From: Thermodesulfobacteriota bacterium
Lineage (GTDB): Bacteria > Desulfobacterota > Desulfobacteria > Desulfobacterales > C00003060
Length of the DNA stretch: 64,000 nucleotides
NCBI GenBank assembly: GCA_034189385.1
Contig: JAXHVD010000004.1
Location: 96,001-160,000, forward strand
Direction: 5' to 3'
The translations under genes and the position numbers were made by a program. The notes below the pieces were generated by a model. The model saw nothing but the letters and a program-made list of their open reading frames with translations. It searched no databases and was not told the origin of the DNA. Below are positions 3,258-39,086 of this stretch, in pieces (the stretch's first letter is position 1; each line of letters opens with the position of its first letter).

Positions 3258-3571
3258 TTGCACAGGGTAATTTAAAAGACTATGGAGACCCGTTCTCGCG
3301 GGCTGTTGCCCTTGGCAGGATGAATCTGACCCCTTCATCTGGCCCCGCCATATGGGGCAGGAGACTGCTGAAGCTATGCACTGACGAGGGATTGAGAAAT
3401 AAGTGGTCATTCGCCCTGTAGGAAATAGACTTGACCTTCGTGCAGACCAGTTGGCCTTTGCCTCGGACGGCAGCGATATTCCGCTCCTGTTCGAAAAAAG
3501 TCTGCAGCTCGTATAACCACCGTGGCTGGACTTGCCCTGCAGACCATGTGCGCCCTGCCACGCCATATAAA

Positions 3572-21853: not shown

Positions 21854-21862
21854 GGGGGAGAA

Positions 21863-22128
21863 ATGACGGGTCTTTTATTCATTGACGATGAGGAAGGGGT
21901 GCGCCGCTCAATCATTCGAGCGCTAAAAAGGGAACCATATACCGTCTATACAGCTGAAGAAGGGGAGACAGGAATCCGACTGGTTGAAAACGAACCCTCC
22001 AAGATCACCATTGTGGTTTCAGATTACAAGATGCCAGGGCTTGACGGCCTAGAGACGCTGGCACGCATTGCCGCTATCAACCCTGAAGTCACCCGCATCT
22101 TGCTCACCGGTTACGCCACCATGGAAAG
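21863..22128 (+). CDS. 5' part (REC domain) of a split response regulator-adenylate/guanylate cyclase gene
   Basis: LFIDDE...VVSDYKMPGLDG...LLTGYATME, then abrupt stop in AT-rich DNA before the REC KP motif. Confidence 0.92.
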
Positions 22129-22279
22129 ATAAATAAAAAAGACATGAATAATATAATAGTGCTCTCGCTGTAGCTGAATCAAATTATAAATAGTTTATAT
22201 TTAAAGCAAAGTCTGCCGTTAATTTTTCGGTGGGCTTTTGTATTTTTTGGGGGAAATTTTTTCGACTCTTCAAAAAGCA

Positions 22280-22288
22280 TGTTATAAT
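22280..22288 (+). promoter_or_regulatory. Extended -10 promoter at the left end of the element
   Basis: TGTTATAAT in an AT-rich context. Confidence 0.55.
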
Positions 22289-22336
22289 ATTATGAGGAGC
22301 TGGAGATAACGTAAGAAGCTAAAAAAAACAATTCTG

Positions 22337-22396
22337 AAGGCCTCGTCGGGGAATCAAACTCCTAAGCGTTATCTCCTCCCGGCGGGGCCTTTTTTA
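22337..22396 (+). terminator. Leader terminator/attenuator-like hairpin
   Basis: AAGGCCTCGTCGGGGA / TCCCGGCGGGGCCTT followed by a T-run. Confidence 0.6.
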
Positions 22397-22423
22397 TTCT
22401 GTGATGAAAGGAGGTGAGAGAGG

Positions 22424-22582
22424 ATGGACGAAACTTTAGAAGAACGAGAACAGCTGGCCCACGAGGAAGCGAAACTCATAGCTCACGAGGAGGCTAAACA
22501 GGGCCAAGATTATGAGGAAGCCTATGAGGAAGCCTATGAGTCAGCATACAACGAGGCGTACCAAGAAGCTATGACGGACTAA
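22424..22582 (+). CDS. 52-aa highly acidic protein with YxxA repeats
   Basis: Strong SD (AAAGGAGGTGA); MDETLEEREQLAHEEAKLIAHEEAKQGQDYEEAYEEAYESAYNEAYQEAMTD; below the ORF-track length cutoff. Confidence 0.75.
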   Translation: MDETLEEREQLAHEEAKLIAHEEAKQGQDYEEAYEEAYESAYNEAYQEAMTD

Positions 22583-22600
22583 AGCAAAGGAGGAAATACA

Positions 22601-22966
22601 ATGAGTAACGAGGAAGAAGTAGAAAGAAGACATTGGTTGGAAGGGTATGTCAATGATGAAGATATGTCCGGTGAACCCACGTCACCGGCGGAGAAGCAGT
22701 ACGAAGATGCGCTTTGGAAAATGGGCTTCCAATATAGTCTTACAGATACAGGTTTAGTCTATAAAACTTGGGATGCTCAAGAGGCCACAGAAATCGTGGC
22801 TAAGGTGGCCGCGGTCGTTAGGGAATTGGAATTGGACGAAGATGCGTTTAGCCTGAGTCACACTATTCAACCCCAGTGCCCAAAGTGCGGAAGCCTTGGC
22901 CGTTTTTCTGATTTTCATTGTAGGGATTGTGGGGCTGAACTTTTGCCGAGTGAGTATTGTGACTGA
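22601..22966 (+). CDS. Acidic hypothetical protein with C-terminal Zn ribbon
   Basis: AAGGAGG SD; CPKCG...CRDCG. Confidence 0.75.
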   Translation: MSNEEEVERRHWLEGYVNDEDMSGEPTSPAEKQYEDALWKMGFQYSLTDTGLVYKTWDAQEATEIVAKVAAVVRELELDEDAFSLSHTIQPQCPKCGSLGRFSDFHCRDCGAELLPSEYCD

Positions 22967-23060
22967 ACTACTACAATAATTTTTGGGTGGGCGCTCCTGG
23001 AGGGTTTTGCCAGTCTCCTTCCCTTCGGGGGCGCTCCACCACACGATGAAAGGAGGTGAA

Positions 23061-24108
23061 ATGAGTTTTGAGTCAGTATTTCCACCAGACTATAAGCCGG
23101 GTTTGACTGTTCGGGGTGGCCCAGGAAAGCACAAAAGGATGGCTGAGAATCGCCAAGAAACGCTCACGAAGATTCGGGAGATCGACAGCCAAATTGACTT
23201 CAAGATGACGCTCCGTGGCTGGTGTTACATGTTAGAGCAAGAATGGGGCTTGGCCAAGTCCGACTTCAGCACTAAGGCAATGCGGTATTTCGGTGAGTAC
23301 CGAGAACGTGGGCAACTTCCCTTGGACTTCTGCCTCGAAGACGACAACCGAGCATTCAGCCAAGGAGAATCGCTTGTCGATGCCGTAGCACCTGATGACT
23401 TCGTGCAAGACGCTTTTGCTTCCTTGCGCGACATTCACACGTACTACAAGCCGCTATCCTTTTGGAACAACCAGAAATACTATATCGAGATGCTAGTTGA
23501 AAAGGCGGACCTCGTTTCACTATTCCGACCTATCTGCTCCAAGTTCAATATCCGAATTGCTAACACTCATGGAAATGCCAGCTATGGTCAGCGCTATGCC
23601 ATGATAAACCGCTTTCGGCAACATGAAGAAGAAGGTCGCAAGCCGGTGCTCTTGTATTGCGGCGACCATGACCCAAGTGGATTGATGATAAGCGATAGGC
23701 TAAAGCATAATTTCAAAAAACTGGAACTGGCAACAGGATGGAGCCCAGACAATCTGCTCATTGACAGGTTTGGGCTAAACTATGACTTCATTGAGAAGCA
23801 CAATCTTTCTTGGATTGACAGCTTGATAACGGCTTCTGGCGAGAATCTCGCTAGCTCGCGACACCATGACTATAAAAAAGCCTACGTGCAGAGCTACATC
23901 AATGAGTATGGTTGCAGAAAAGTTGAGGCAAATGCCATTGTAGTGAGACCGGAGATGGGGCGTAAACTTTGTTATTACAATTCTGCGCTACATCGACCTT
24001 CATGCCGTTGAGAATTTTAAATCTCAGATAAAGGATTCACAGCGAGTAGTTAGAACTTTAACTGAGGATATCCTTGAAGCTGTGGCGGTGGCGTTTATTC
24101 CATCATGA
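23061..24108 (+). pseudogene. Topo VI-A/DUF2399-like Toprim-domain protein with apparent 3' frameshift
   Basis: W.NQ.YYIEMLVEK and LLYCGDHDPSG Toprim motifs; ORF stops at 24011 but a second frame ILRYIDLHAVENF... stays open to 24108. Confidence 0.65.
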
Positions 24109-24223
24109 AGAGGCATTAGGAAAAAGGAGGCAAGAGAGATTTGGTACAAAAAAGTACCAAAGATAACCCCAAGAGAAAACACACAAAACCGGAGACAAAA
24201 AAACAGTTAGAGGAGGCAAGACA

Positions 24224-24790
24224 ATGACAAAAGACGGTAAAAAAGCGGTGGTCGTTTGGCTAGGAACAGATCCATTTCATGCTGAGAAATGCTGGCCTGC
24301 CGCCGCGAAGAGGCTTGGTTATGATGTTATCACTGAGAAAGACGTTAGGCAAGGTATTAGTCTGATGACAGCCGAACACCTTCAAGTACCACGTCGCAAT
24401 TACGAAGATCACGGTATAGACACACCTTACAACCATTGCAGGCAGTGCGGATGCTTTTTATGGGATGCACCGGGGCCATCACTGCTGGAAAGATGGAGCA
24501 AGCTATTTTTAAAAGCACATGAAATCGCTCAAAAGGTGGGCATGTCAATCGGCAAATACTACACTGCCCGAAATGGCTGGATAAGTGGTCGCACCTGGAC
24601 GGATGCTGAAGCGATAGAGGCAGTATGCCAAGACGAATATATAAGTGCACTGTGCGATTGGCTATTTATTATAAACGGTGAAGACATCCCCACTCTCGAA
24701 AAACCAGTCAAGGATGCCCGAATTACGCCTGATATTATTGAATGGCAAGATAGGGCGAATCAATACTTGGCAGATATTGGTCGGTGGTAA
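24224..24790 (+). CDS. Hypothetical protein (CxxC)
   Basis: GAGGAGG SD, 188-aa ORF. Confidence 0.65.
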   Translation: MTKDGKKAVVVWLGTDPFHAEKCWPAAAKRLGYDVITEKDVRQGISLMTAEHLQVPRRNYEDHGIDTPYNHCRQCGCFLWDAPGPSLLERWSKLFLKAHEIAQKVGMSIGKYYTARNGWISGRTWTDAEAIEAVCQDEYISALCDWLFIINGEDIPTLEKPVKDARITPDIIEWQDRANQYLADIGRW

Positions 24791-25045
24791 GGCTATTGGG
24801 TGAGATGATTAACACATCACACTCAACACACATGGGGCGGCGCTCAGAGTTCTGGTGCCGCCTCTGTTGTTTGGTGCTTTGTTGGGAACCGTGAAAAACG
24901 ACAAAAAACATGAAAGCTCTCTTTTTGGGCGCACTTTTTTTATAAGTATTTGTTTTTACTAGCTGTGAAATTAGCCTTGTCAATAATGCAATCTTCGAGA
25001 TCGCTTATTATATTAAAAATAAAAAGATTAAAGAGGTGTAGTCAA

Positions 25046-25243
25046 ATGAAGTCAAGGCTATGGGCAGTGTTACAAAACAGGAAACTGGAACAAAAGAAAG
25101 TCGCCGCCGAGCTGGGTCTGCACCATGTACGGTTGAACCAACTGTGCAACGGTAGGGAGCCGACCAGATTGGAGGCGAAAAAAATATGTGAGCATTTTAG
25201 TATGGATGAAAGCGACCTATTTTCACCAGTCCTATTTTTGTAA
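25046..25243 (+). CDS. XRE/Cro-like HTH regulator
   Basis: QKKVAAELGLHHVRLNQLCNGREP; GAGGTG SD. Confidence 0.8.
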   Translation: MKSRLWAVLQNRKLEQKKVAAELGLHHVRLNQLCNGREPTRLEAKKICEHFSMDESDLFSPVLFL

Positions 25244-25255
25244 GGAGCACAATTT

Positions 25256-25417
25256 ATGAACACAGACTATCTTCAGGAGAAATACCCGCTTCAACGCGTT
25301 GCGGAAAACCCTGTAAGGAACGGCCCGGGGATTGTGTGGCTGCTCGCGAAGCAGATCGAGACCAACAGCCTATTGAAAGCGATTTTGAAAGAACTAAAAA
25401 AAGATACAGATGAGTAA
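25256..25417 (+). CDS. 53-aa hypothetical protein
   Basis: AAGGAG SD; MNTDYLQEKY...LLKAILKELKKDTDE. Confidence 0.55.
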   Translation: MNTDYLQEKYPLQRVAENPVRNGPGIVWLLAKQIETNSLLKAILKELKKDTDE

Positions 25418-25551
25418 AACAGTTTTCACTGGACAAGGCTTTGCAAACCTTGCCCACAATCACCAACCGCCGCAGTCGGTAGGAATGACTTCTGACCTCC
25501 TAGTCTGGGTCCTTCCTCCGGCTGTGGTCACAATCAGACTAGGAGGAAGAT

Positions 25552-26166
25552 ATGCGAAGGAATGGGAAACAACCGAACGAGATCAACAAGGCCAAGATTG
25601 CTCAAGCTAGGAGCCAGCTTCTTAGGTGGCCAAAAGATGTGGTCAGCGCGGTTGTGGGTGACGTTTTCGAGATACTTGCACAAGAGGATGAGTTCTCCGC
25701 TGTCCGGGTTTCTGCTAAACCCTATAAATGGCCACAGTGGATTTACAGTACCAAAAAGCTTCGACACGTGATGAACAGGACTAGATTTCAAGACATGTAT
25801 AATTATCTTTGGCTCAACAAGTTCCCCTTCATCAAGAGGCATTCACACGTGTTCCTGAAGGTGGGGGCTGATGCAGCCGACATCCTGGTGAAGATACGAA
25901 CAAAGGACATGGCCAACAACCTGGACCCTCCTTGTTCGAAACAACTCGTGAATAAGTATTTGGCCTATTTCTCGCGTATCGGGATAATCGAAAAACGGGG
26001 CATCATTGCGTATCAGAACGTGTATTGCATCGCGAAACAGGGAAGCTTTCATGAGGTGATTTCAGACAATGGGACAAAACAGGTGGTGGAAAGGCCAAGA
26101 GTTCTGCCACTGCTTACGGCGAAGGCAAAGAGGGAGATCGAAGGTTTTGACACTATTTTCTCATAG
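25552..26166 (+). CDS. Basic hypothetical protein, possibly a wHTH replication protein
   Basis: AGGAGG SD; TKDMANNL..CSKQLVNKYLAYFSRIGII wHTH-like segment; followed by an AT-rich palindrome cluster. Confidence 0.55.
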   Translation: MRRNGKQPNEINKAKIAQARSQLLRWPKDVVSAVVGDVFEILAQEDEFSAVRVSAKPYKWPQWIYSTKKLRHVMNRTRFQDMYNYLWLNKFPFIKRHSHVFLKVGADAADILVKIRTKDMANNLDPPCSKQLVNKYLAYFSRIGIIEKRGIIAYQNVYCIAKQGSFHEVISDNGTKQVVERPRVLPLLTAKAKREIEGFDTIFS

Positions 26167-26170
26167 CTCT

Positions 26171-26400
26171 CATTATTCAGTACTGAATAATGAAATTATT
26201 CAGTGTGAAGTCACTGAATAATGGGAATCTTTGGGATATATTATAATAACTAGGGCTTAAGCAATGGCGGACCTTAATGTAATATATAATCTAATTCAAG
26301 TACCCTGTATATATATCAGCTTTTCCTTATACACTTTTCTCCTTCCAAGTATTCAGGAAGAAAAGTGTATAGGAAGTGGCGCTAAAGCGCCACCTCCTTT
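26171..26400. repeat. Cluster of palindromes/inverted repeats (origin-like)
   Basis: Perfect 22-bp palindrome CATTATTCAGTACTGAATAATG; ATTATTCAGTG-N6-CACTGAATAAT; TATACACTTTTCT/AGAAAAGTGTATA; GTGGCGCT-AA-AGCGCCAC. Confidence 0.8.
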
Positions 26401-26529
26401 TATTTATTCGTTCTGCTTAAATAGAGGGAGTGGTCCTGAATGAAACACAACCCGGTCCTGAAGAACACTAATCGACAAGGTGTCGCGCGCCGCTGCTGCT
26501 GGTGGTGGCAAAGGAGGAACTAGCAGACA

Positions 26530-26685
26530 TTGAAGACTACAGATCCCACTGAAAAGATATGCTGGCGCTGCCGCAGGGAGCATGAAGGACCATGCCCCTA
26601 TGCCGCCCATGCAACCGTTGACGACAAACACACCGGCGCTGATTGCTACATTGCGCCGGGCACAGAGGAGGACAAGAAGGAGTGA
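26530..26685 (+). CDS. 51-aa Zn-knuckle-like peptide
   Basis: AAGGAGGA SD followed by TTG; CWRCRREHEGPC; GTGA overlap with the next ORF. Confidence 0.5.
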   Translation: MKTTDPTEKICWRCRREHEGPCPYAAHATVDDKHTGADCYIAPGTEEDKKE

Positions 26686-26831
26686 ATAAAAGTACGGGAC
26701 GATGGATCGAGCCCATTGTAAAACCGGACCCCGAAGTGCAAGAGCTTCAGAAACGCTCGGGCAACTTTGACCCCCCGGTCAAGAGAAGACCAGGAAGACC
26801 AAAGGGGTCAAAGACCAAGAAGAAGAAATGA
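26682..26831 (+). CDS. Small basic protein with AT-hook-like motif
   Basis: RRPGRPKGSKTKKKK; ATGA overlap with terL. Confidence 0.6.
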   Translation: MNKSTGRWIEPIVKPDPEVQELQKRSGNFDPPVKRRPGRPKGSKTKKKK

Positions 26832-28558
26832 TTGTACCCAAGATAGACAGACCAACCACACAAAGACTCCTGAAGATCCTGCGGGCTTTTATCACAAATG
26901 AGCAGGAGCAGAGCATGTGGCCCGTTTTGGATTTGACAGTGGACATGCTTCTTGATGACCCAGAGTTTCACTATTACTACACTGACACGTTTGAGTTTTA
27001 TTTGGAAAATGGCATTCACAACCGGATGGCACTCCATGCTTTCATTCGCCTTTTCTGTGGGTTCGACATTACAAGGCGGGGGGGCGTCGGAAAAGAGCCG
27101 TTTTGCAGTCCCTTTGATTTTGTGGCTGTCTTATTCTTTCAGGAGTGCCGGGATGCGCTGGCCATGGGATCACGAGCCAGCGGCAAGACTCTTGCTCTGG
27201 CCGTTTTGATTTACTTGTGGGCACTTTTCTACCCCGAGTGCGAAACGACAACCTGCGCTGCGACTAAGGATCAGTCATCGCGGGCTTTTTTGTATTTGCG
27301 AAAACTATGTACGAGCAGCAATGCAAGCAACAAACTTCTTAGTTCAAAGCCGACCGCTAAAGCTATCAAATGGGGAAACGGCTCTAGCGTGGAAATGACT
27401 ACTTCAAGTTTGGAGGGAGCGAATGCGCTTCATCCCAGCAAACTCCTTGCCGACGAATCGGAACTTTTGGACTGGAGGGTGGTAGAGGAAATGCTCTCGT
27501 GTGCTATATCACAAGGGGACATACAGGCGAGCACGGTCTTTCTGTCAAGTAGGAAGTTTCTGGACGGACCATTTCAAAGGCTGCTTGAGATGGCAAAAGA
27601 AAATCCCAAGACATACAAAATCTTCAATTGGAGTGCGTGGCAGGCCGTTGAAAGGTGTATGCGGAAATGTGACGACAAGGTTCATGGCAGGTGCGAACTG
27701 CAAGAGCTATGCAAGGGGCGGCTCCGAAAGAGTGACGGCCACTTGGACCTAGAAGACTTCAAGGCGAAGGTACGCCTTCTTTCCGATGAAGTTCTAAAAA
27801 GTCAATGGTTGAATCTCAAGCCGGTTATCACTTCGACGGTGTTCAATAACTATTATGAACCGGAAGTCAGTCTGATTTCACAGCCCGAAGATTTTCATTA
27901 TGATTTCACAGTCTGCGGTATTGACTGGGGGTCAACCAAGGCCAGCAATCTTGTTTTTCAACGATGGCTCGTGGATGTGAGCGACCTTCGTGACGATGCC
28001 ACGGGCCATGTGGATGTTGATAGTTATAAGAAGCCGACACTGTATCTTGCCTATGAATACCGGTCCGCCACTTCGGACATGGCTAGGCTGGCCAGGGCTA
28101 TACTTGAAAGCCCCTATAGAGAGGACTATGAATTGATCTTTGTGGACCCTTCTGGCAAGAGCCTGCGAAATGAACTGGCGCGTTTTGGGATAGAAACAGA
28201 GACGCCACTGGTCACGGGAGTGCAAGAAGGAATTGAGGTTCTGAAGGGGTATCTGAAACCCTATTGGTCAGGCAGGAAGCGCAAGTCGTGCCTATACATT
28301 TTAGACGGTTATTATCACGGTGAGCCAGACCTGGAGCCCACGCACAAAGAGCTTCAACTGATGCGTCACGTCACAAAGCCAGACGGCACCTTGTCACAGA
28401 ATATAGTGAAGGCGCATGACCACGGTGTTGACGCGGCACGATACGCCATAACTGCCGTGCGAAGCGTCATTGAGAGCCTTTATGCCCAGGACTTTGACGA
28501 GGATTTGGGACAGCTTGAACAGTTTGCCGAGACTTTTGGGATTGAAATCTTGGCCTAG
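26828..28558 (+). CDS. Phage terminase large subunit
   Basis: Walker A GSRASGKT, Walker B LLADESE, RNase H-like nuclease GIDWG...VDPS...DHGVDAARY. Confidence 0.88.
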   Translation: MIVPKIDRPTTQRLLKILRAFITNEQEQSMWPVLDLTVDMLLDDPEFHYYYTDTFEFYLENGIHNRMALHAFIRLFCGFDITRRGGVGKEPFCSPFDFVAVLFFQECRDALAMGSRASGKTLALAVLIYLWALFYPECETTTCAATKDQSSRAFLYLRKLCTSSNASNKLLSSKPTAKAIKWGNGSSVEMTTSSLEGANALHPSKLLADESELLDWRVVEEMLSCAISQGDIQASTVFLSSRKFLDGPFQRLLEMAKENPKTYKIFNWSAWQAVERCMRKCDDKVHGRCELQELCKGRLRKSDGHLDLEDFKAKVRLLSDEVLKSQWLNLKPVITSTVFNNYYEPEVSLISQPEDFHYDFTVCGIDWGSTKASNLVFQRWLVDVSDLRDDATGHVDVDSYKKPTLYLAYEYRSATSDMARLARAILESPYREDYELIFVDPSGKSLRNELARFGIETETPLVTGVQEGIEVLKGYLKPYWSGRKRKSCLYILDGYYHGEPDLEPTHKELQLMRHVTKPDGTLSQNIVKAHDHGVDAARYAITAVRSVIESLYAQDFDEDLGQLEQFAETFGIEILA

Positions 28559-28570
28559 GAAATAGAATCA

Positions 28571-29341
28571 ATGGCAGATTATGACGAGAGAAAATTTGAA
28601 GAGGTTCTGAGCCTAGTAGGCAAAGGCAACACCCTGGACACGGCATGTTACAGCTCTGGAATCGAACCGAGGCGAGTGAGAAGTTGGATCAAAGCCAACA
28701 GAGGAACCTGCGGGTTGAAATATAAGCAAGCCAAGGCACGATTCATAACGGAGCTAAGAAGTCAGATGTTGGCAGCGCCGCCCGGAGACAAAAGAAACGC
28801 GCTTGCCAGGGAATTGGCTGCACATGATCCCAGCTTTGCGAGGAGCGTGGCACAACAGCACAAGCGGTTGATCGAGCAGGAAGACAAGGAAAGGGACAAG
28901 GCACTTGAGCAAACACTTGGCAGGGTTGATTATGGCTTCGCGGGATGGAAGCTGAAGAAGCGGGACGGTGTAAGGAAGCTAAAGGCGGGCAATCTTGACG
29001 AGAAGGCACTTAAAACAATCTGGTCTTGGAGTCTGGCCGGAGAAGACAAGAAGGACATCAAAGAGAGATACGACTTCGAGCAGAGGATTCTTGGAAATGC
29101 TACCAAGCAGAGCATGAAACAAGTAGCAGAAAAAATAAAGGCGCTGATGGTGGGAAGGAACAAGATGAGCAAGGACGAGGAGCGACTTCTCACTGAAAAG
29201 ATAGTCACAGCAAAAAAGACCAAGAGTCCTTATAAACTGAAGGATTCAAATGGAGGGGTGATAGAGCTTCCAGCGATTGAGCTAGAGTGGAAACAGGAAA
29301 AGAAAAAGACAGTCAGGAGAAAGAAGAAAACAAGAAGATAA
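28571..29341 (+). CDS. Hypothetical protein with terminase-small-subunit-like N-terminal HTH
   Basis: VLSLVGKGNTLDTACYSSGIEPRRVRSWI...YKQAKA. Confidence 0.5.
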   Translation: MADYDERKFEEVLSLVGKGNTLDTACYSSGIEPRRVRSWIKANRGTCGLKYKQAKARFITELRSQMLAAPPGDKRNALARELAAHDPSFARSVAQQHKRLIEQEDKERDKALEQTLGRVDYGFAGWKLKKRDGVRKLKAGNLDEKALKTIWSWSLAGEDKKDIKERYDFEQRILGNATKQSMKQVAEKIKALMVGRNKMSKDEERLLTEKIVTAKKTKSPYKLKDSNGGVIELPAIELEWKQEKKKTVRRKKKTRR

Positions 29342-29951
29342 AGAGAGAATAGCGTGATTCGAAACGCTGGCAGGGATGTGCCTCCTTTTTCGGAAGTGGC
29401 CTCCTTTTTGGGTTGGCTAAACAATTCTCAATAGGATTACAAATCCAATAAGAACGTTTAATGCAATTATGTAATTAAACATAAGCATCACCTCTTTGAA
29501 AAGGATTTCCCTGCCAGCGTGCATAAGATACCAAAGGTAGGAAGTTTTGTCAAGGAGGGGGAAGAATAAGAAAGGATGATATAGTGATTGAAGATGGGGG
29601 GTATATGATAGTGGTCAAGAAGCAGGCACTAGAAAAATGCCTATATACCACACAAATAGAAAGCTTTTCTGAGTGCTCTATTTGCTACATAGGGACTGAG
29701 AGGGAAACCACATAAGAACATGGAAGCAGAGACAGGTTATAAGCACTTAAAATATATTAGAAAACAGGAGGAACAGCTTTCAAGTCTACATATTGGGGTG
29801 TGGCTACTCAGCAAGTCCACGCCCAGCTTGTATTTGAGAGCGACACCATCGGCAAACATAAGCTACAAAAGGCTTTACAAATGACATCGGAACATATTAA
29901 AATATGGCTGTTTCAGAGCCTAAAACACGCAACAGGAAAGGGGCAAATCGG

Positions 29952-30638
29952 ATGAAAACAGCCGTCGGTTATGTCAGGGTTTCAACCATCGAACAGGCCC
30001 AACAGGGTGTTAGCCTAAAGAACCAGCAGGCGAAGATCAAGGCATGGGCGAAGCTCAACGGATATGCTTTGAAAGACGTATATCGTGACGAGGGAATCAG
30101 CGGAAAAGCTATGGACAACCGGGACGGACTACAGAGTGCGCTCAAGAGTGTGGGCAAAGGCGATGCGCTGGTTGTTTACAGCCTGTCGAGGATGGCCCGG
30201 TCAACCAGGGATGCCCTGGCTATCGCGGAGGCGCTACAACACAAGGGCGCAGATCTGGTGAGCGTCACTGAGCACATAGATACGACAACTGCGGCGGGGA
30301 AAATGGTGTTCCGAATGCTGGCCGTGCTCAATGAGTTCGAAAGGGACCAGGTGTCTGAGCGCGTCACACAGGCGCTGGCCTACAAGCGCGGCAAGAATGA
30401 ATGGGTGGGCCGTGTACCGTACGGTTTCAGGGTACATGCTGGAAAGCTGGTGGAGGACACAGAACAGATTGAAAGCATCAAGAAGATGAAACGGCTTCGG
30501 AAAAGGGGCAAGACTCTGCGCGACATTTCAAAGACGTTTGGGGTATCACCCGCGTATGTTTTAAGGGCTGTAAATGTCAACCTGAGGACGCTGAAAGCTA
30601 AGTATCTCAACGGATCACGGCTTCAGCCTGTTTATTAA
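29952..30638 (+). CDS. Small serine resolvase/invertase with C-terminal HTH
   Basis: GYVRVST, DEGISGK, RDGL, SLSRMAR, EFER. Confidence 0.93.
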   Translation: MKTAVGYVRVSTIEQAQQGVSLKNQQAKIKAWAKLNGYALKDVYRDEGISGKAMDNRDGLQSALKSVGKGDALVVYSLSRMARSTRDALAIAEALQHKGADLVSVTEHIDTTTAAGKMVFRMLAVLNEFERDQVSERVTQALAYKRGKNEWVGRVPYGFRVHAGKLVEDTEQIESIKKMKRLRKRGKTLRDISKTFGVSPAYVLRAVNVNLRTLKAKYLNGSRLQPVY

Positions 30639-30902
30639 ACAAATGGTTTTTAAACAAAAAGGGTTTGAAATGGACTTAAACAGATTAAATGTGAAACGGT
30701 CACAGTGATATGACAACCGGTCAAACTGCCCCAGGCAACCAGCTCTTCCCACTCCGCAGGGCGAGGGACGGGGGCGCCGTCTTACATCACCACCGAAAAT
30801 CAAACGGGCGATGGACGGGGCACTCCGCAGAAAATTAAATTATATTAGCTGTCCCCGAAGCACAAGGAAAGGAGAAATACTACAAGAGGAGCGTGAAGCA
30901 CA

Positions 30903-31070
30903 ATAGCCAGTAAAGACACGTATTGCATATTCTGCAACAGACCCGAGCCACAGTACACCCCGCCAAACGCAGACACAGAAATCGTCTGTAGCCGGTGCGT
31001 TCAGCGCCTAGTAAACGCCACCCAGGAACAACTCTTGACCCTGTACAAGGTAGCACTGGCACGGGACTAA
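30903..31070 (+). pseudogene. Zn-finger gene remnant
   Basis: CIFC...CSRC reading frame starting at ATA after GAGGAG; an apparent continuation in another frame suggests a frameshift. Confidence 0.45.
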
Positions 31071-31147
31071 GCAGGTAGCCGACGAGCTGGCCGGAAGCTG
31101 GCTGCTACCGGAAACGCTAGAACAAATAGAAGAGGAGGAAGGAGACT

Positions 31148-31363
31148 GTGAGCAAGAAACCGGAGAGACTAGACCAGATCTGGAGCGAGCGAGACCTTTG
31201 CCGTCGTCTAGACCTGCCCGTCACCAAGAACGGTAAAAGCGCGAGGCTGGGGTATTGGATCAGGGGCGGCCTGAACTACGTCGAGAAGTCAGGCAAGCGG
31301 TATTTCTTTGAATCTGATGTCATTGACTACCTGTGGAGCCGATATGAGAACCGAGACGAATAA
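31148..31363 (+). CDS. Excisionase/MerR-like small wHTH DNA-binding protein
   Basis: WSERDLCRRL...LGYWIRGGLNYV...KRYFFESDVIDYL; strong SD. Confidence 0.65.
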   Translation: MSKKPERLDQIWSERDLCRRLDLPVTKNGKSARLGYWIRGGLNYVEKSGKRYFFESDVIDYLWSRYENRDE

Positions 31364-31521
31364 GGGCTGTAAGTTGCAAACCACACACACGGTTGGGGGT
31401 AGGTTTTGACTAGCTTTTATATAACTTTAAGGGGGTATTTTTCCGGGTTAATAGGGTTACATGCCTTTTCCTGAAAACCCCCGTTAAACAGCGGATAAGA
31501 AGCTTTTACGGCGTATTTACA

Positions 31522-31758
31522 ATGACTCAACAACAGACAGACAGGATCATTCTCAACGGCAGAATCACGGAGAACCAGGCCTTCGGCAAGTGGGCAGTGG
31601 AGCTGAACCACCGCTCCGGCTGCACGACCTTGGCGTCGTGTTACGCATCCGGAAGACTGCGGCTTGCGTCAATCCGCATGCTGCCCGGTGATTGGGTGAA
31701 AGTGGAGCTTTCGCCCTATGACCTGAGTCGAGGCCGGATTCTATATCGTTTCAAATAA
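31522..31758 (+). CDS. infA: Translation initiation factor IF-1 homologue (divergent, element-borne)
   Basis: [36 protein letters not shown] matches the IF-1 C-terminal signature. Confidence 0.85.
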
Positions 31759-31958
31759 CTACTCTACCCAGCGCAGCATTATCGTGGTGGCTTCCTCGCT
31801 GTGTCTGGTCCGGCAGAACCTAAGTCAGCTGTCGGAGGATTCATAAGGAAGCCACTAACACGCACGGTCGCAACCTCCAAAACCGGGGCGGCCCGTGCCA
31901 CCGCAGTTAGAATCGGGCCGCCCCATACTTTTAAACTGACAAAAGGAGTGAAAGAAAA

Positions 31959-32639
31959 ATGACAACAGAATATTGGCAGATACCGGCGGATCAGGATTTC
32001 CCAGCCGCGTCGATAAAAGAGGATTCTGATTTCGCGCATTCAACGGTAAAACAGATTGGCTATGATCTGCTGAGCGCGGCTTTTAGGCAGTATATGGCCG
32101 ACAGCGGCATCGACGTTGATGAGTTTGTCACCCGGCCAGGCCAGGGCCATTGGATAGTGAAAAAGCAGAAGATGAATGAGCACTTTGACCCATCCGACCT
32201 GAAATCAAGCCGCTGGGTGCAAGAGAAGACAAATCTCCTGAAGTGCTTTCTTGACGGCTTGCAGTGGCATTTTGACGGCTTTTATTGCGTTGAGCTTCCC
32301 CACGGGTCGTACCCTAAAATTGAAACATTGCTGCAACTCGAACGGGATCTTGGTGCAGCACCCGGCACCCTGGTTGACAAGCGCCTGTTTACGATCGAGG
32401 CCCAGACCGCTCTAAAACTGCTTGACAAGAAGGGCAATCCGTCAAAGCGTGCGAAGCGGTTGCCGCGACTCAAAGCCGCTGAGATGCGCCAGGAATTGAA
32501 GGCCAAGGTCAACGCCGCCAGAGTGAAAGAGGATGCTCTGAGGCGAAAGAAAGAGGCAACGGCAAAAGAACGGCAATTCAATAAAAAGTTCAAGGCGCTA
32601 CGCGAGAAGTTCCAACCGCTCCTGAACGCCTTGCAGTGA
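31959..32639 (+). CDS. Hypothetical protein with basic coiled-coil C-terminus
   Basis: AAGGAG SD, 226-aa ORF. Confidence 0.7.
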   Translation: MTTEYWQIPADQDFPAASIKEDSDFAHSTVKQIGYDLLSAAFRQYMADSGIDVDEFVTRPGQGHWIVKKQKMNEHFDPSDLKSSRWVQEKTNLLKCFLDGLQWHFDGFYCVELPHGSYPKIETLLQLERDLGAAPGTLVDKRLFTIEAQTALKLLDKKGNPSKRAKRLPRLKAAEMRQELKAKVNAARVKEDALRRKKEATAKERQFNKKFKALREKFQPLLNALQ

Positions 32640-32645
32640 CAATCA

Positions 32646-32745
32646 GAAACTAAAAGGCAGACTATTAGAAAACTAATAGGCAGACTATTAGAAAACTAGT
32701 ATATAGTATTAATATAGATTAATAATACAGATTAATAATACAGAA
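32646..32745. repeat. Iteron-like direct repeats plus AT-rich repeats
   Basis: AGGCAGACTATTAGAAAACTA x2 (23-bp period); AGATTAATAATAC x2. Confidence 0.8.
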
Positions 32746-32813
32746 GAGATTAACTTCTAAAGAAGTTAATAGGGCTGACAAGCCAGCCCAAGAAGCTAAG
32801 AAGGAGTTTTATA

Positions 32814-33050
32814 ATGGCTGTAAAAGAAACACCGTATTTCAAAGGACTGCTCGTGCCCACAAGTTGCGGCAGAAGGTCTACAGCATTTGAGATCCGAGAC
32901 GAACATAATAAAATAGTTGGCCGCATGGTCGTTGAGACACGAGCGTTAGTTGACCTGAGCGACGTTCCCCAGGACAGGGCGAAGTTTGTAGACGTGCAGC
33001 ACCTGCCGTCTCGGCTCAGTTTCCACTTAGATAACATGGCTGCGATATGA
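32814..33050 (+). CDS. Hypothetical protein
   Basis: AAGGAG SD, 78 aa. Confidence 0.6.
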   Translation: MAVKETPYFKGLLVPTSCGRRSTAFEIRDEHNKIVGRMVVETRALVDLSDVPQDRAKFVDVQHLPSRLSFHLDNMAAI

Positions 33051-33070
33051 GGCCAAAGGAAGGTGATTGA

Positions 33071-33298
33071 ATGTATAAGAACGTTACCGAATTTCACAAT
33101 GGACTGTTCGACAATAGCAAGAGTAAAGATGCTGTGGAAGGCTTCACCCGGAAATGCGAAGGCAGAAACCCCATGACTAAGGAATCTGTCATGGACGGCT
33201 TTGTGAAGGCCGCAACCGGCAAGCCGCCTAGCTTGGAACCGAAGCCGAAGCGGCCTGTTGACACCGTTGACAGGTTCGTGGCCGCATTGAAGGAATAA
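33071..33298 (+). CDS. Hypothetical protein with internal repeat (DAVEGFT / VMDGFVKA / VDRFVAA)
   Basis: AAGGTG SD, 75 aa. Confidence 0.6.
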   Translation: MYKNVTEFHNGLFDNSKSKDAVEGFTRKCEGRNPMTKESVMDGFVKAATGKPPSLEPKPKRPVDTVDRFVAALKE

Positions 33299-33460
33299 AA
33301 TAATAGGAGGCGTTCCTTGCTTCCCAAAAGGAACGCGGCGAGCGGCAGGGTTTTTGGCTTACCTCCTTTACCCTGCTGCTCGTCGTCGCTTAATCTCGGT
33401 GTGTGCGGTCCGGGGTCCCTCGGATACCTTGAGCGAGCCGAGGCGACCGCCGCCGCGCAC

Positions 33461-33595
33461 CTACTTTTTGCCGCGCTTGACGGCATGCCAGTCGATGTTG
33501 TGATGCTCTTTGAGGTACAGGATCACGGCATTGCGTAGGAAGCTCGTCAAGCTGCGGTTCTCGCTGTCGGCAGCCTTAACTGTGTTGTTGCTCAA
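33461..33595 (-). pseudogene. Arc/CopG ribbon-helix-helix remnant
   Basis: Manual translation KAADSENRSLTSFLRNAVILYLKEHHNIDW; N-terminal strand apparently missing. Confidence 0.5.
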
Positions 33596-33927
33596 TTCAC
33601 GTCTTGCTTTCTATGTGATCCATGAGTAATGCAATGCTCATAACAAGAGCCCCCACAATCAACCAATGATAGTCCTCCTCTTCCTTGTCATTACTGGCTT
33701 GCATTTTAGTCGCAATACTGCGTATGTAGTCTATTGATACGCCAAGTCTGGCCTTCGGTGTACCTGCTTCCTGTGCACTAGGTGTCAACTCAATGCGCTC
33801 CAAACGTTGTGAGAAATAATCTGCGAACTGTTCAAGAAGCTTTCCTATCGTCTTTACGCCACCCGCAGATCAGGAAAAAGGCGAAGGCACAGGCGAGGGC
33901 GTATAGGATCTTCAGGAGGATCATGGG

Positions 33928-34770
33928 TTATGCAGTACCTCTTCTGCTCCTTCTCCTGAGTCCTGCTAGACCTATGAGACCAGAGCCAAGGAGGAGGACG
34001 GTTGCGGGTGCGGGTACTGCATTAGCCGTAACTGTGATGTTGTCAAACTCACCGGCACCGATGCGATAGTCTTGATCCATGCTCGCTCCATCAATGCCGA
34101 GAAGCTTTTCAGCCAAAATGGCATAGTGACCGGTTTCATAAGTTTCAGTTCCAAAGTCAGCTATCCCCCAGACTTCAAGGTTGTAGGCGTCGAGGATTAT
34201 CGAAAGGGACACTACTTGATCGCAACCCCCATCAAAATATTCCAGGTTGTCGAGTGATCCGGCTTCGGCTCCCGTGATATATCTGGCGTCAAAGATCCAA
34301 CCGCCTCCCGTATACGGTGGCCAATGACCACCTGGATTGTTGCTCATGGCCCATCCCACTTGCCCTTTCCCCTCGGAAGTGGAATAGAACCTCATGGCAG
34401 AATTGTGGGCTTGCGGTGAATCCGTGGTCGCATATGCATCGAAGGTCAGAGTATAGACACTGCTGCAGGTCGTCAATGATTCGGGAAACAGATTGAAGGA
34501 GACGGCTAGACCACTGCATCCGTCTGTCAGCCGACCATTGGCGACCATGGAACCCATGTTAGAGCTATTTCCAACAAGTGTCCTGTCGCCTGTCCATCCA
34601 CCTTGACCTGAGAGGTTGCTTCCCTCAGCGTAACTCTCAAAGTCCTCATGAAAGATAGTTGCCGCCGTACAAAAAGACCCCAGAGGTAACACTAGAATTG
34701 CGGCCAGTGCGACCAGTAGGAGTTCACCCTTCAAAATACGTAAAGCCCGAAAGGGTTGTCTTGTTTTCAT
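33928..34770 (-). CDS. PEP-CTERM sorting-domain exported protein
   Basis: Signal peptide; C-terminal VPAPATVLLLGSGLIGLAGLRRR. Confidence 0.92.
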   Translation of the reverse strand: MKTRQPFRALRILKGELLLVALAAILVLPLGSFCTAATIFHEDFESYAEGSNLSGQGGWTGDRTLVGNSSNMGSMVANGRLTDGCSGLAVSFNLFPESLTTCSSVYTLTFDAYATTDSPQAHNSAMRFYSTSEGKGQVGWAMSNNPGGHWPPYTGGGWIFDARYITGAEAGSLDNLEYFDGGCDQVVSLSIILDAYNLEVWGIADFGTETYETGHYAILAEKLLGIDGASMDQDYRIGAGEFDNITVTANAVPAPATVLLLGSGLIGLAGLRRRSRRGTA

Positions 34771-35103
34771 TTCTCCCCCTTTGCAGAAAACAGAGATGAA
34801 ATCGTGAAGGAATAGTTCTGAACTCCCAACAGAACAGACAGCGCCCTGTCAGGAGCTAGGTAGGCAGATTTTTAGGTGTGTCTCCATGAGGGTGACCCTG
34901 GAATGATGTAAAAATACGGCCAAGAAAGCCGTCTTTTGACTGCCCGACTCCTCCAATATGCCGTATACCACTCTGCATGTGGGAAATCAATGGCACAAAG
35001 TGACCATTTTTTGACGCAAAAACTACCTATGGTTTCACGCAAAAACTACGTAGTGGAGTGGATCAGGAAGAAAGGTTGGGTCAGCTTGGAGAGATTTGAA
35101 AGG

Positions 35104-35259
35104 CTATTTCTTGGGCTTCTTCTTGTACTTTTTCAGAACGTCGCGGATCGCCTCTTCCAAGACCTCGTTCTGGCGTTTTTCCAGCGTAGCGGCCAGGATC
35201 TTGAGTTCTTTTAGAAGGGCCTTGTCGATGGTCGTGTTGTACATCTTGCGGTCAGTCAT
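35104..35259 (-). CDS. Ribbon-helix-helix regulator divergent from the recombinase
   Basis: MTDRKMYNTTIDKALLKELKILAATLEKRQNEVLEEAIRDVLKKY (51 aa); below the ORF-track length cutoff. Confidence 0.8.
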   Translation of the reverse strand: MTDRKMYNTTIDKALLKELKILAATLEKRQNEVLEEAIRDVLKKYKKKPKK

Positions 35260-35510
35260 GATATACGGGTATCAGAAGCCGGTACATTTTTCAATAAATA
35301 TAGAATTATCGGTATCTTTTTCTTGCTTTTTGTGTTATAGTTTTATAGTTGTCTATACAATCACACACTTCCAAACAGTACGATGAAAAAGAGTTTTAAA
35401 AACAATAGGTTCCCGAGATTCCCGGTGTCCGTGAGGTCCGGGGCGCCTGTACTGGCGTGGAAGGTCTCGGGTTCTTTTTTGGGTAGTCTCAATTAAGAGA
35501 GGGTCAGAAA

Positions 35511-37325
35511 ATGAAAGCAGCCATCTATTGTCGAGTATCAACACCGACTCAGAAAGAGGCCGAAACCATAGAAGGCCAGAGGGTCGCATTGACAAAATAC
35601 GCGGAAGACCGGGGCTGGGAGATTGTGGACGTATATGAAGACGAGGGCCTTAGCGGCAGTTTCCTAGAAGGCCGCAGGGATTTTCTACGGCTGCTTGAGG
35701 ACATGGGAAAGGGAGAGTTTGAAATCCTTCTGGTGGCCGAACACAGCCGTATCACCCGCTCTGACGACCCGATGGAAGGCGCTCTAATACTGAAGACTCT
35801 ATTGGACAACGACATTAAGGTGGCCTCTCCTGGGGCTGGCCTGGAGTCTGCTGATACCTTTGAAGGTCGCCTCATGTTCACGTTAAAAAGCATGTTCGCC
35901 GCAAAAGAAAAGACCGACATTCTTGAACGCTTCAAGAGAGGCAAAGCGAAGTTTCTTGAAAAGGGCATCTACCCCAACGCGAGAGTTTGTTATGGCCTAC
36001 AAAAGGTGGTTCAACGGGGTAAAAACGGCAAAGTCATAAAGCACGAGATCGTCATCAACGAGGAAGAAGCGGCGGTCTTGCGGTCGGTCTATGATTGGAT
36101 AGTCAAGGACGGTCAGACCATCAACTGGGCGGCTGCCGAGTTGAACCGCCTAGGCATAAGGACAGCGCAAGGTAAAAGGTGGAGTTCTCCCAGGCTTTCT
36201 GAGATTCTGCGGAACGAGGCTTTATGTGGCACAATGTATTGTAACAGGTACGTGTGGAAGACCACCGGCATCAGCCCCAAAGGGAAACAACAGCAGAAGC
36301 TTTTAAAGGTCAGGCCCAAGACGGACCCAGATGTAATTCATATTTATGTCCCAGCCATATTCAGCAAAGACGAGTTCAAGCTGCTGCGGGATACGGTCAA
36401 GAACAACCGCCGCCGTGCACGGTCAAAGAAGGACAGCCCATTCTTGCTTACTGACAAGTTGAAATGCGGCATCTGCGGTGCTCGTCTAGTCGGTGCTTAT
36501 GGTGGAAGTCCAGGTCAGAAAAAAGTGAACTATTATATATGCCACAACAGAAAGAAGTCGCCCCAGAGGCGAGAGCCAGACGAGAAGCCGTGCTGGCTGC
36601 CCATGGTAAACATGTTATCCCTTGACCAGAAGGTCGAACGTGATGTCTTGATTGACCTGTTTATGCACCCAAAGCGGACCCTGAAGAGCTGGTCGTCGGT
36701 GGATCAGAATAAGCGCCGCCGGGCCAAGCAGTTGAGGGATAAGGTGGCCCAGGCCGAGGAACGTATTGAAAAGTTGAGGAAAAAGAAAAAGGCACTGCTT
36801 CAGAAGGCCATAAGCGGTGTTGCATGGGAGGGGTGGAATGAGGCCGATATCAAAGAGGCCGTTGAAGGTGAGAGGGTAAAGCTGGACCAGCAGATCACCC
36901 TAGAAACCGAACGCAGGGACACGGCCAAAAAAGAGGCTGAAGCCTTAGAGGGAATGATTGAGAGGGCAAAAAAGGTTCGCAATGGGTCCAAGGAATTGGA
37001 AGAGGTGGCGGCTAGGCTTGGTGAGAAGATCTTGAATATGACCGTTGCTGAAAAACGGACCTTGTTGGACTATATCATCCCATCCGGCCATTATATCACC
37101 GTGGAGCCTATTTTAGATGACCGGGAAATCTGGTACGACAAACCCAAAGGGGTGGCCCGGACACTTAAGTGTGAGTGGATGGTGATGCCTGTCACGGTGC
37201 CTGATTTTAACTTAAAGGGGCTGGTTGCTGCCTTGCGGGAATACGATAAAACCGGAGTGATCCCAAAGGCTTCTGTATATTTAATGCAAAATAAGCATTT
37301 AAAGCGCCATTCAGGCAACCAATGA
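35511..37325 (+). CDS. Large serine recombinase (integrase)
   Basis: IYCRVST catalytic Ser, DEGLSG, recombinase domain (YG, LNRLG, W...ILRN..CG), Zn ribbon CGICG...YYIC, coiled coil; last 6 codons lie beyond the right att core. Confidence 0.95.
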   Translation: MKAAIYCRVSTPTQKEAETIEGQRVALTKYAEDRGWEIVDVYEDEGLSGSFLEGRRDFLRLLEDMGKGEFEILLVAEHSRITRSDDPMEGALILKTLLDNDIKVASPGAGLESADTFEGRLMFTLKSMFAAKEKTDILERFKRGKAKFLEKGIYPNARVCYGLQKVVQRGKNGKVIKHEIVINEEEAAVLRSVYDWIVKDGQTINWAAAELNRLGIRTAQGKRWSSPRLSEILRNEALCGTMYCNRYVWKTTGISPKGKQQQKLLKVRPKTDPDVIHIYVPAIFSKDEFKLLRDTVKNNRRRARSKKDSPFLLTDKLKCGICGARLVGAYGGSPGQKKVNYYICHNRKKSPQRREPDEKPCWLPMVNMLSLDQKVERDVLIDLFMHPKRTLKSWSSVDQNKRRRAKQLRDKVAQAEERIEKLRKKKKALLQKAISGVAWEGWNEADIKEAVEGERVKLDQQITLETERRDTAKKEAEALEGMIERAKKVRNGSKELEEVAARLGEKILNMTVAEKRTLLDYIIPSGHYITVEPILDDREIWYDKPKGVARTLKCEWMVMPVTVPDFNLKGLVAALREYDKTGVIPKASVYLMQNKHLKRHSGNQ

Positions 37326-38049
37326 GGGGCTCGACGGTTTTCTTACAAAACCCTTTGACAACAGGGAATTGCGCAACAAGATTCAAGACATTGTCATAAA
37401 AAAGCGACTGAAGCAATTTGTCTCTAATCAAGTCTATGAGGAAATTAGAAACGATCCTGCTGTCATGAACCCCAAAAAACAGAAAGTGACCATACTGTTT
37501 AGTGATATTAGAGGATTCACCGAGATGTCTTGGAAAGTCCCACCTGAAAAGATTGCAGAATTTCTAAATGACCACTACTTTACACCCTTGGGAGAAATCG
37601 CTTATCTGTACAACGGCACTGTAGATAAACACATTGGCGACTGTATCATGGTGATATACGGATCGCCTGTCTCCCATGAGGACGATATTGTCAGGGCTAT
37701 TGAATCGGCAATTCATATGCAGAAGACTTGTAAGGCCATCAGCAAAGGATTGAAAAAAACAAATGGATTCAGGCTCCGTGTTGGAATCGGTATCTGTGCG
37801 GGCGAGGTAGTAAGTGGTGTCTTTGGCTCCTTGAGGAAAAGAGAATACACGGCCTTCGGGCTGCCGGTCAATATTGCCGCTCGTTTAGAAAAAATGGCAA
37901 AGGGCGGGGAGATATTGGTCAGTGGTACGACCTACAAAGAGGTGTCCCACCACTTTGCGGCCGAGAGGATGACGCCGGCCATCCCCGTCAAGGGCTTGGA
38001 TGAGCCTATTCCCATCTATCGGATTCTGGGCCCTAAGGCTTCAACTTGA
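37305..38049 (+). CDS. 3' part (end of REC plus class III adenylate/guanylate cyclase domain) of the split gene
   Basis: AIQATNEGLDGFLTKPF (REC end); TILFSDIRGFT, DKHIGDCIM, YTAFGLPVNIAARLE. Confidence 0.93.
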
Positions 38050-38935: not shown

Positions 38936-39086
38936 TATGATGCTTATCCCCTATGTTTTGTCGTCTAGGAAATGGGAACGAACTCGCAAGGAGTCTCCCC
39001 CGCTTTCCCTTCTCCAGTCCAGCGGCCTTTCTTATACCCTGAACGGTTACGAAGCAAGGTGAAACTTCGGTGAGGCTCCTCAATGG

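Follow-up and report, generated by a model that had tools for sequence, protein, structure and literature searches.

A large serine recombinase element splits a conserved signalling gene in the 64,000-nt stretch analysed here (positions 96,001 to 160,000 of contig JAXHVD010000004.1, assembly GCA_034189385.1, of a Thermodesulfobacteriota bacterium), which is referred to as the window. The gene encodes a receiver (REC) domain followed by a class III cyclase, and it is broken at 22128/37305 by an insert of 15,176 bp (22129-37304) that carries its own large serine recombinase (LSR) gene. We read this segment, with a probability of roughly 0.78, as a recently acquired, sporadic, site-specific integrative element that uses a conserved coding site as its bacterial attachment site (attB). 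The gene would be off while the element is resident, and its disruption would be a by-product rather than a switch of the host. The host genome has 4.13 Mb in 64 contigs with a completeness of 90%.

The split gene and its rejoined frame

The letters AAAG are present at the left junction and again at the right junction. The left open frame starts at 21863, enters the insert and ends at a TAA stop codon (22130-22132). The main features of the locus are listed below.

21863..22128, plus strand: 5' half of the REC-cyclase gene, 88 codons and 2 nt, ending in ...LLTGYATME (Pfam Response_reg 5.9e-15)
22125..22128: shared core AAAG of the left junction (attL), from the sequence and from contig joints that share 4 letters
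22129..37304: integrated mobile element, 15,176 bp; contigs of two sequencing runs skip exactly 15,176 nt and orthologues are contiguous
35107..35259, minus strand: ribbon-helix-helix (RHH) protein, 51 aa, divergent from the LSR gene (Pfam RHH_3 25.4 bits, cutoff 21.6)
35511..37325, plus strand: LSR, 604 aa (three Pfam domains; PHROGs phrog_95 integrase 3.3e-90)
37301..37304: shared core AAAG of the right junction (attR), from the sequence and from contig joints
37305..38049, plus strand: 3' half of the REC-cyclase gene with the remainder of REC (AIQATNEGLDGFLTKPF, conserved Lys), a linker and the class III cyclase (Guanylate_cyc 2.5e-29)
20861..21853, plus strand: dusB (tRNA dihydrouridine synthase), the upstream host neighbour (Pfam Dus 3.1e-84)

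Joining 21863-22128 to 37305-38049 with scripted coordinates gives 1011 nt, which are 336 codons and a stop with no internal stops. The rejoined 336-aa protein (...LLTGYATME-S-AIQATNEGLDGFLTKPF...) aligns without gaps across the joint with 11 same-genus orthologues that are open frames of 338-371 aa. In Pfam, positions 2-82 of the 111 in Response_reg are covered by the left half, and positions 4-172 of the 183 in Guanylate_cyc by the right half. The 3' half is 65-80% identical to 19 same-genus best matches. An earlier note on this DNA, made from the letters alone, had described the split at AAAG, the stop-free rejoined frame and the signature motifs of both domains. The sequence agrees with that description, and SDYKMP, TKPF, FSDIRGFT, DKHIGD and NIAARLE are all present in the translations.

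The receiver residues read from the orthologue alignment are DD 8-9, D54 (SDYKMP), T82 (LLTGY) and K104 (TKPF). The host gene thus has the acidic pocket, Asp, Thr and Lys of a receiver together with the two metal Asp, the substrate Lys and the Asn/Arg of a cyclase, as is expected of a REC-regulated class III cyclase. Their phospho-acceptor and catalytic roles are presumably those generally known for such domains. The break falls after the conserved Thr (LLTGY) and before the conserved Lys (TKPF), within the receiver domain, which it divides into two parts. We place it in the structure from what is generally known of CheY-like domains. The target codon is Ser89 (AGC), a conserved codon. With the element in place, neither gene fragment would be expected to have phospho-regulated cyclase activity, because the cut separates the conserved Thr from the conserved Lys of REC.

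The chance origin of this split-gene pattern is excluded because contigs of two runs join 22124 to 37301 and 75 of the 80 orthologue loci are uninterrupted. The attB is not an RNA gene since the Rfam scan of 21000-39000 returned one chance-level miRNA match only and the tRNA scan of the same region returned none. The host halves look intact, as had been noted before. At the columns that are invariant in 25 orthologues, a single private change (E to G in SETTY) distinguishes the rejoined protein, and the other sequences have 0-4 each. This count fits a recent insertion and a maintained gene alike and does not discriminate between the readings. The synonymous sites are probably saturated, the nearest orthologue being 80% identical in protein.

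A second element at the same nucleotide

In the metagenome-assembled genome (MAG) 'Desulfobacteraceae bacterium Eth-SRB1', a second LSR element interrupts the orthologous gene at the same nucleotide. This locus lies on a 1.25-Mb scaffold of an independently assembled genome, and the window and Eth-SRB1 hosts belong to two families of Desulfobacterales. The Eth-SRB1 LSR has 596 aa and is 42% identical to the window LSR over the full length. It lies directly upstream of the 3' half, and its open reading frame (ORF) reads 17 codons past attR into host DNA. The REC half is found 8.7 kb upstream, beside dusB, which gives an element of 8,663 bp. In the other genome of the Eth-SRB1 genus the gene is intact, with an open frame of 336 aa. 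The earlier note had suggested that relatives be compared for independent insertions at the same codon, and the distant LSR element of Eth-SRB1 is such a case.

The letters GC are the only ones in common between the two Eth-SRB1 junctions. The left arm ends with ...ATGATTGC at attR and the right arm begins with GCAATCAT... at attL. The element site (attP) reconstructed from both arms has 22 of 30 symmetric positions around GC. The symmetry background for both attP sites was the set of 62-mers of the window element, none of which reaches 22. GC in Eth-SRB1 and AG in the window are the same two nucleotides, namely positions 1 and 2 of the Ala/Ser codon that comes after the conserved ATGGA. The crossover dinucleotide in the window is likely AG at 22127-22128, and AG is preferred over AA because its register matches the GC core of Eth-SRB1.

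The LSR gene and a small RHH gene are the only genes that both elements have in common. The 51-aa RHH protein of the window is 40% identical to the 58-aa RHH protein of Eth-SRB1 (L182:7916-8089), and the RHH gene adjoins the LSR gene in both elements. The remaining cargo of the Eth-SRB1 element is plasmid-like, with a RepA-like protein and an Xer-like tyrosine recombinase. It also encodes an 82-aa phrog_1933 protein. Judged from the sequences, the site is a genuine and evolutionarily kept attB, because an LSR and RHH cassette of the same clade on an unrelated element uses the same nucleotide. A predicted complex of LSR residues 160-604 with two RHH copies scored 0.00 (mark 0.32), which is evidence for neither side.

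Occupied and empty sites in public runs

Four public runs (X1-X4) hold parts of the region. They were available as assembled contigs only, and contigs drop rare variants. Run X1 has a 15,799-nt contig that covers 21988-37786 and spans both junctions with 0 mismatches at a depth of 37.2 (flanking contigs 33-45.5). X1 may be the source sample of the window and hence not independent. In run X3, which belongs to a different study, position 22124 is joined to 37301 on a 620-nt contig with mismatches of 0/137 and 7/483 on the two sides, and the depth over the element is mostly about 0. X3 therefore holds a near-identical host with an empty site and without the element. A second joint in X3 has TCT in place of AGC and belongs to a lineage with another Ser codon. 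The empty-site contigs of X1 and X3 skip exactly 15,176 nt, with 4 letters in common. Runs X2 and X4 have low-depth or divergent pieces only, and no statement on habitat or excision is based on them.

The insertion is sporadic, recent and polymorphic, because the LSR is rare, the cargo is unrelated between the two elements and the site is empty in a near-identical host. The earlier note had offered a simple recent disruptive insertion as its fallback, and the pattern of a sporadic, recently acquired mobile element fits it.

The large serine recombinase and its relatives

The window LSR matches the Pfam families Resolvase (3.8e-27, 1-143 of 145), Recombinase (6.7e-17, 1-101 of 102) and Zn_ribbon_recom (4.1e-07, 1-53 of 58). 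Across 16 family members there is no variation at R8 and S10 (YCRVST) or at Cys319, 322, 344 and 361. The protein has the N-terminal catalytic domain with the Ser nucleophile, the Recombinase domain and the zinc ribbon of a serine integrase, which bears out the earlier impression of an intact recombinase. The NCBIfam XisF model gives a partial match only (2.6e-17, 62.9 bits against a cutoff of 375), so the protein is not an XisF equivalog. The LSR ORF crosses attR, and its last six residues (RHSGNQ) and stop codon are encoded by host DNA, which places attP inside the 3' end of the recombinase gene.

The LSR is single-copy in the window's own genome and rare elsewhere. Matches were found in 2 of the 37 genus genomes, that is in 1 of the 36 other species, where the match is a partial sequence of 41% identity. 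Matches were also found in 2 of 401 genomes sampled from the order and 4 of 401 sampled from the phylum; among the 26 genomes of the Eth-SRB1 family there is 1. The search of 1.84 billion representatives returned 11 full-length relatives of 36-44% identity (E <= 4e-89), the next match standing far behind at 3.7e-59, and no LSR relative above 44% identity was found among them.

Further searches returned distant or unconfirmed matches at most. The single LSR protein gave no match in viral contigs, and in genome contigs it gave 18 pattern hits of which 0 were confirmed. Generic N-terminal patterns derived from the alignment found only distant LSRs in metagenome contigs, whose identity does not exceed 45% over an N-terminal piece of 83 residues or 40% over longer partial stretches. 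The alignment search of viral contigs likewise found only distant LSRs, the best-ranked with 31% over residues 1-344, and at most 44% over an 84-residue N-terminal piece.

A tree of 20 sequences places the Eth-SRB1 LSR with P0002 and P0053 (support 100/100) and the window LSR elsewhere with weak support. A genome of the phylum (G768) has two near-identical copies of a related LSR, L273 (G768:C1) and L276 (G768:C3), at different sites. Read by eye, one copy lies just upstream of a hisA-like gene and the other adjoins an RHH protein and a nucleotidyltransferase-like gene pair. The LSR clade is not uniformly tied to the REC-cyclase gene because the G768 copies sit at other sites.

The C-terminal tails of 14 LSR family members were read for attR read-through, and a partial fit was found in P0063 only. 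Its C-terminus (…VSHRGNQSG…) resembles a +1-frame reading of the conserved receiver segment SAIxATNQG, in the same manner as the window LSR tail RHSGNQ is the +1 frame of AIQATNE. This tail hints at a third insertion in a REC gene and is taken as a lead only.

Orthologue loci

The nearest orthologue loci belong to MAGs of uncultured Desulfobacterales or 'Deltaproteobacteria'. The best match is an unbroken frame of 338-408 aa in 18 of the 24 other same-genus genomes; of the other six, a contig end truncates one and only paralogue-level matches were found in five. From 185 relatives (one-genome-per-species contigs of Desulfobacterales, other species) 80 orthologue loci were kept. The REC half is contiguous in 75 of them, cut by a contig end in 3 and interrupted in 2, one of which is the Eth-SRB1 locus. 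A dusB homologue lies upstream in 33 of the 63 loci that have enough upstream DNA. An orthologue at E <= 1e-60 is present in 102 of the 401 sampled order genomes. No intact paralogue of the same orthogroup was found in the window's own genome, where the search gave three matches in total and the other listed match is a 35%-identical domain in a 1116-aa frame. The crossover dinucleotide in 78 orthologue loci (L096-L175 minus L142 and L165) is GC in 52, AG in 19, TC in 5 and AC in 2.

Four short frames were considered as further LSR insertions and rejected. The gene of G299 is cut by a contig end, the frame of G223 starts at contig position 67, the REC part is wholly absent from G190, and the frame of G422 results from a tandem duplication of 1,716 bp. 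This duplication (L267, G422:C76:7000-13000, about 134-3566) holds, by eye, the 3' part of the orthologue and a secreted cysteine-protease-like gene. Its breakpoint (...CCCT|CATGGA...) is on the 5' side of the position that serves the two LSR elements as attB, only a few nucleotides away from it, which could be a coincidence or an assembly artefact. In L165 (3,787-nt contig, 1-340) the orthologue is truncated about 5 codons downstream of attB, and the homology begins at ...TNQGIDGF. It is preceded by 295 nt of unrelated AT-rich sequence, and a search of that 1.9-Mb genome did not turn up the REC half.

Proposed mechanism and alternative explanations

We propose that the LSR inserted the element by attP x attB recombination into the Ser89 codon (AGC) of an uncultured marine Desulfobacterales bacterium. 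With attP inside the 3' end of the recombinase gene, the LSR ORF would come to read across attR once the element is integrated. Recombination of attL with attR by the same LSR would restore the gene to the letter, and in known LSRs excision needs a directionality factor encoded by the element. The disruption of the gene would be a by-product of choosing a conserved landing site, and it is most likely that rather than a switch regulated by the host.

Several observations weigh against this account. No directionality factor was recognised among the element genes, and no capsid, portal, tail, conjugation or replication genes were recognised in the element with Pfam, PHROGs, NCBIfam and PADLOC. 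No circle (attP) joint and no empty site of the same strain were found in the contigs of the four runs, in which rare forms are invisible, and present-day mobility is putative. X1 does hold a 277-nt empty-site contig (depth 35.2) that joins 22124 to 37301. It comes from a neighbouring lineage with an intact gene and not from excision in the same strain, because it has mismatches of 10/135 and 13/142 to the window, an identity of roughly 92%. Of the two forms that the earlier note proposed to look for, the empty site was seen, in other lineages in X1 and X3, and the circle was not seen in these contigs. The symmetry of the window attP is weak (12 of 30 positions, a value that 5% of the background 62-mers reach), and AG over AA is a choice by register. 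In the tree the LSRs of the window and Eth-SRB1 do not pair as sisters, and the two copies of a third branch (G768) occupy other sites; the shared targeting could be ancestral or convergent.

The earlier note had suggested a switch controlled by excision. In this reading, similar to 'active lysogeny', the element is kept because regulated and reversible excision turns on phospho-regulated cAMP/cGMP synthesis in some cells or conditions. We consider such a switch unlikely. Its part on exact restoration stands, and it would agree with two intact gene halves beside an intact LSR, with the same codon being hit by two distant LSRs in two families of Desulfobacterales, with the conserved RHH regulator beside the LSR in both elements and with the lack of an intact same-orthogroup paralogue in the window's own genome. 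The part on service to the host is not supported. The LSR is sporadic (2/37 genus, 2/401 order and 1/26 Eth-SRB1 family genomes) and fails to show the lineage-wide retention of developmental elements, the cargo of the two elements is unrelated, and the near-identical host of X3 lives without the element. Intact halves are equally expected after a recent insertion, and neither a circle nor a same-strain empty site appears in the contigs of the four runs. LSRs also commonly target conserved coding sites without any switch function, according to the available text of PMC10083194. A more specific form of the idea is that a portable LSR and RHH cassette, its attP inside the 3' end of the recombinase gene, has specialised on the strand 4/helix 4 boundary of the receiver in one conserved REC-cyclase gene. 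In sulfate reducers, the syntrophic partner Eth-SRB1 among them, the cassette would then turn phospho-regulated cyclic-nucleotide signalling on and off in a reversible and heritable way, and its excision would be controlled through the RHH protein or through a directionality factor that escaped recognition. This form is speculative, and we hold it to be improbable.

An immobilised remnant, integrated once and then deprived of its means of excision or transfer, would leave a permanent knock-out heading for decay. The lack of a structural or transfer module (the terminase-like match is weak), the coding density of about 72%, the lack of a recognised directionality factor and of an excised form in the contigs of the four runs are all in line with it. 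We nevertheless find it doubtful, as the LSR is of full length and has its three domains, both junctions have the same att core, the host halves have no excess of private changes and the insertion is young, with the empty site still present in a host 0/137 and 7/483 mismatches away. Misassembly or misbinning, by which an element of another organism would have been joined to the host halves, might be feared in a genome of 64 contigs and 90% completeness when the run with the full structure, X1, may be its own source sample. It is very improbable given that the 15,799-nt contig of X1 bridges both junctions with 0 mismatches at the depth of its flanks (37.2 against 33-45.5), that the independent assembly of Eth-SRB1 has the same architecture at the same nucleotide, and that the junctions fall exactly at the shared core that restores the frame. 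The sporadic, site-specific integrative element remains our preferred reading.

Comparison with known systems

SPbeta is a complete inducible phage of 134 kb. The skin and fdxN elements are vertically kept in their lineages and excise in a terminally differentiated cell. Excision of the Listeria comK prophage restores the function of the gene, and reversible excision without lysis has been demonstrated during infection. The host of the present element is not known to us to form spores or to differentiate.

The present element resembles SPbeta in spsM of B. subtilis (SprA LSR and SprB directionality factor) in that an element with its own LSR splits a coding gene and precise excision rebuilds, or here would rebuild, the composite gene. 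The excision of SPbeta rebuilds spsM in the available text of PMC4191935 and PMC5499854. Unlike SPbeta, with its known directionality factor and sporulation-timed excision, the present element has 15 kb, no structural genes were found in it and its excision is only putative. It also resembles gin in gerE of Bacillus cereus ATCC 10987, a small non-prophage element that intervenes in a short regulatory gene, and that gene is reconstituted by site-specific recombination according to the available text of PMC5595907. The excision of gin is sporulation-specific and experimentally shown, whereas the present element has phage-like and miscellaneous cargo and its rearrangement is putative.

LSR-mediated deletion that restores an interrupted gene is likewise known for skin in sigK (SpoIVCA), skinCd (Clostridioides difficile) and fdxN (Anabaena, XisF). 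skinCd is kept in the lineage and excised in a terminally differentiated cell, as far as the available text of PMC5025042 describes it. In contrast to the lineage retention of skin and fdxN, the window LSR has matches in only 2/37 genus and 2/401 order genomes. An ORF interrupted in such a way that precise excision would restore it, as in developmental gene-intervening elements, was found here and lineage-wide retention was not. The Listeria phages phi10403S/A118 in comK ('active lysogeny') are similar as serine-integrase elements in a regulatory gene, and they differ in that no comparable reversible excision is known for the present element.

Distantly related LSRs often share one conserved target site in coding sequence (Durrant et al. 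2022, available text of PMC10083194), and 33 LSRs were reported there in one prolyl isomerase gene. Response_reg is present in 13 of 1069 LSR target genes compared with 3 of 908 random genes, at a false discovery rate of 0.076 (PMC10083194, supplementary file 3, as available). The sharing of one target by distant LSRs and REC genes as LSR targets are therefore already known from that source. The terms Guanylate_cyc, PF00211 and 'cyclase' gave no match in the 8 available supplementary files of that paper. The present pair of LSR and target is probably absent from that survey because no LSR relative above 44% identity exists among the 1.84 billion representatives. Our literature search found no described LSR insertion in a REC-cyclase gene. 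The second LSR instance at the same nucleotide in Eth-SRB1, the near-identical host with the empty site and the rarity of the element are new. In our view the type of event is well known and its target is new, and signs of a regulated switch have not appeared so far.

The locus offers a clean natural example, in two independent instances, of a serine-integrase lineage landing on one codon of a conserved signalling gene. Uncultured marine sulfate reducers have almost no genetic tools. The two LSRs, whose inferred attB and attP differ in the central dinucleotide (AG and GC), are possibly an orthogonal integrase pair. The central dinucleotide must match between the sites of known LSRs. If the same holds here, each element type would enter only a subset of hosts (AG 19/78, GC 52/78). 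Carriers of the element should lack this phospho-regulated cyclase, and they would be natural knock-outs comparable with empty-site strains of similar sediments. Regulated excision, if true, would carry the idea of 'prophages as genetic switches' past Firmicutes and cyanobacteria and into cyclic-nucleotide signalling, and nothing here shows it.

Other content of the element

The left end of the element has a G+C content of 0.44-0.46 compared with 0.53-0.55 in the left flank. The listed ORFs sum to a coding share of about 72%. The earlier note had described some internal genes as decayed; no frameshifted gene remnants were found inside the element, and only the coding share could be read in that direction. 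The genes of the element other than those of the RHH protein and the LSR are listed below.

22601-22966, plus strand: zinc-ribbon protein
22983..24011, plus strand: member of the phrog_6247 family, labelled 'DNA topoisomerase' in PHROGs (3.6e-48; no Pfam or NCBIfam match)
24950..25243, plus strand: Cro/CI-type helix-turn-helix (HTH) regulator (Pfam HTH_26 2.8e-07, HTH_3 1.1e-06; PHROGs repressor families)
26828..28558, plus strand: protein like the terminase large subunit (TerL), weak match (PHROGs phrog_2 3.7e-10 and five weaker TerL families)
29904..30638, plus strand: small serine recombinase of the resolvase/invertase type, 244 aa (Pfam Resolvase 4.9e-41; phrog_125 'DNA invertase' 1.8e-52)
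31522..31758, plus strand: paralogue of initiation factor IF-1 (infA) (NCBIfam TIGR00008 69.3 bits, cutoff 61.15; Pfam eIF-1a 3e-11)
33928..34770, minus strand: secreted protein with a PEP-CTERM anchor, cargo (Pfam PEP-CTERM 21.5 bits, cutoff 20.7; NCBIfam PEP_CTERM domain)

A temperate prophage was considered and rejected, as no capsid, portal, tail or lysis genes were found with PHROGs among the 15 element ORFs and the sole packaging-type match is the weak TerL-like one. This protein has no Pfam match, its tblastn search against 50,697 phage records was empty and its sole match among PDB sequences (E=0.69) is an unrelated flagellar lipoprotein. PADLOC gave one weak match to a JetD fragment (1.8e-4) among 21 element proteins, and defence cargo was not recognised.

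A few minor observations were made along the element. Positions 31695 and 31725 are loose ends where contigs of other organisms share words with the infA paralogue. Two tandem 23-nt repeats of 96% identity are present at 32647-32692, just after a 226-aa ORF, and could be an operator or iteron. The short motif ACGCAAAAACTAC is present twice at 34985-35060, where Rfam and tRNA searches gave no match. The summed contig depth of run X1 is about 206 at 35007-35014, and the contig of the element itself has about 37. In all four runs many contigs stop or diverge at this motif, which resembles a short repeat that is common in sediments of this kind. At 35395-35480, about 30 nt upstream of the LSR start codon, there is a long GC-rich hairpin with a T run after it (CCCGAGA...TCTCGGGTTCTTTTTT). 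It was spotted by eye and was not reported by the consensus scan, and it could be a terminator or attenuator that insulates the recombinase gene.

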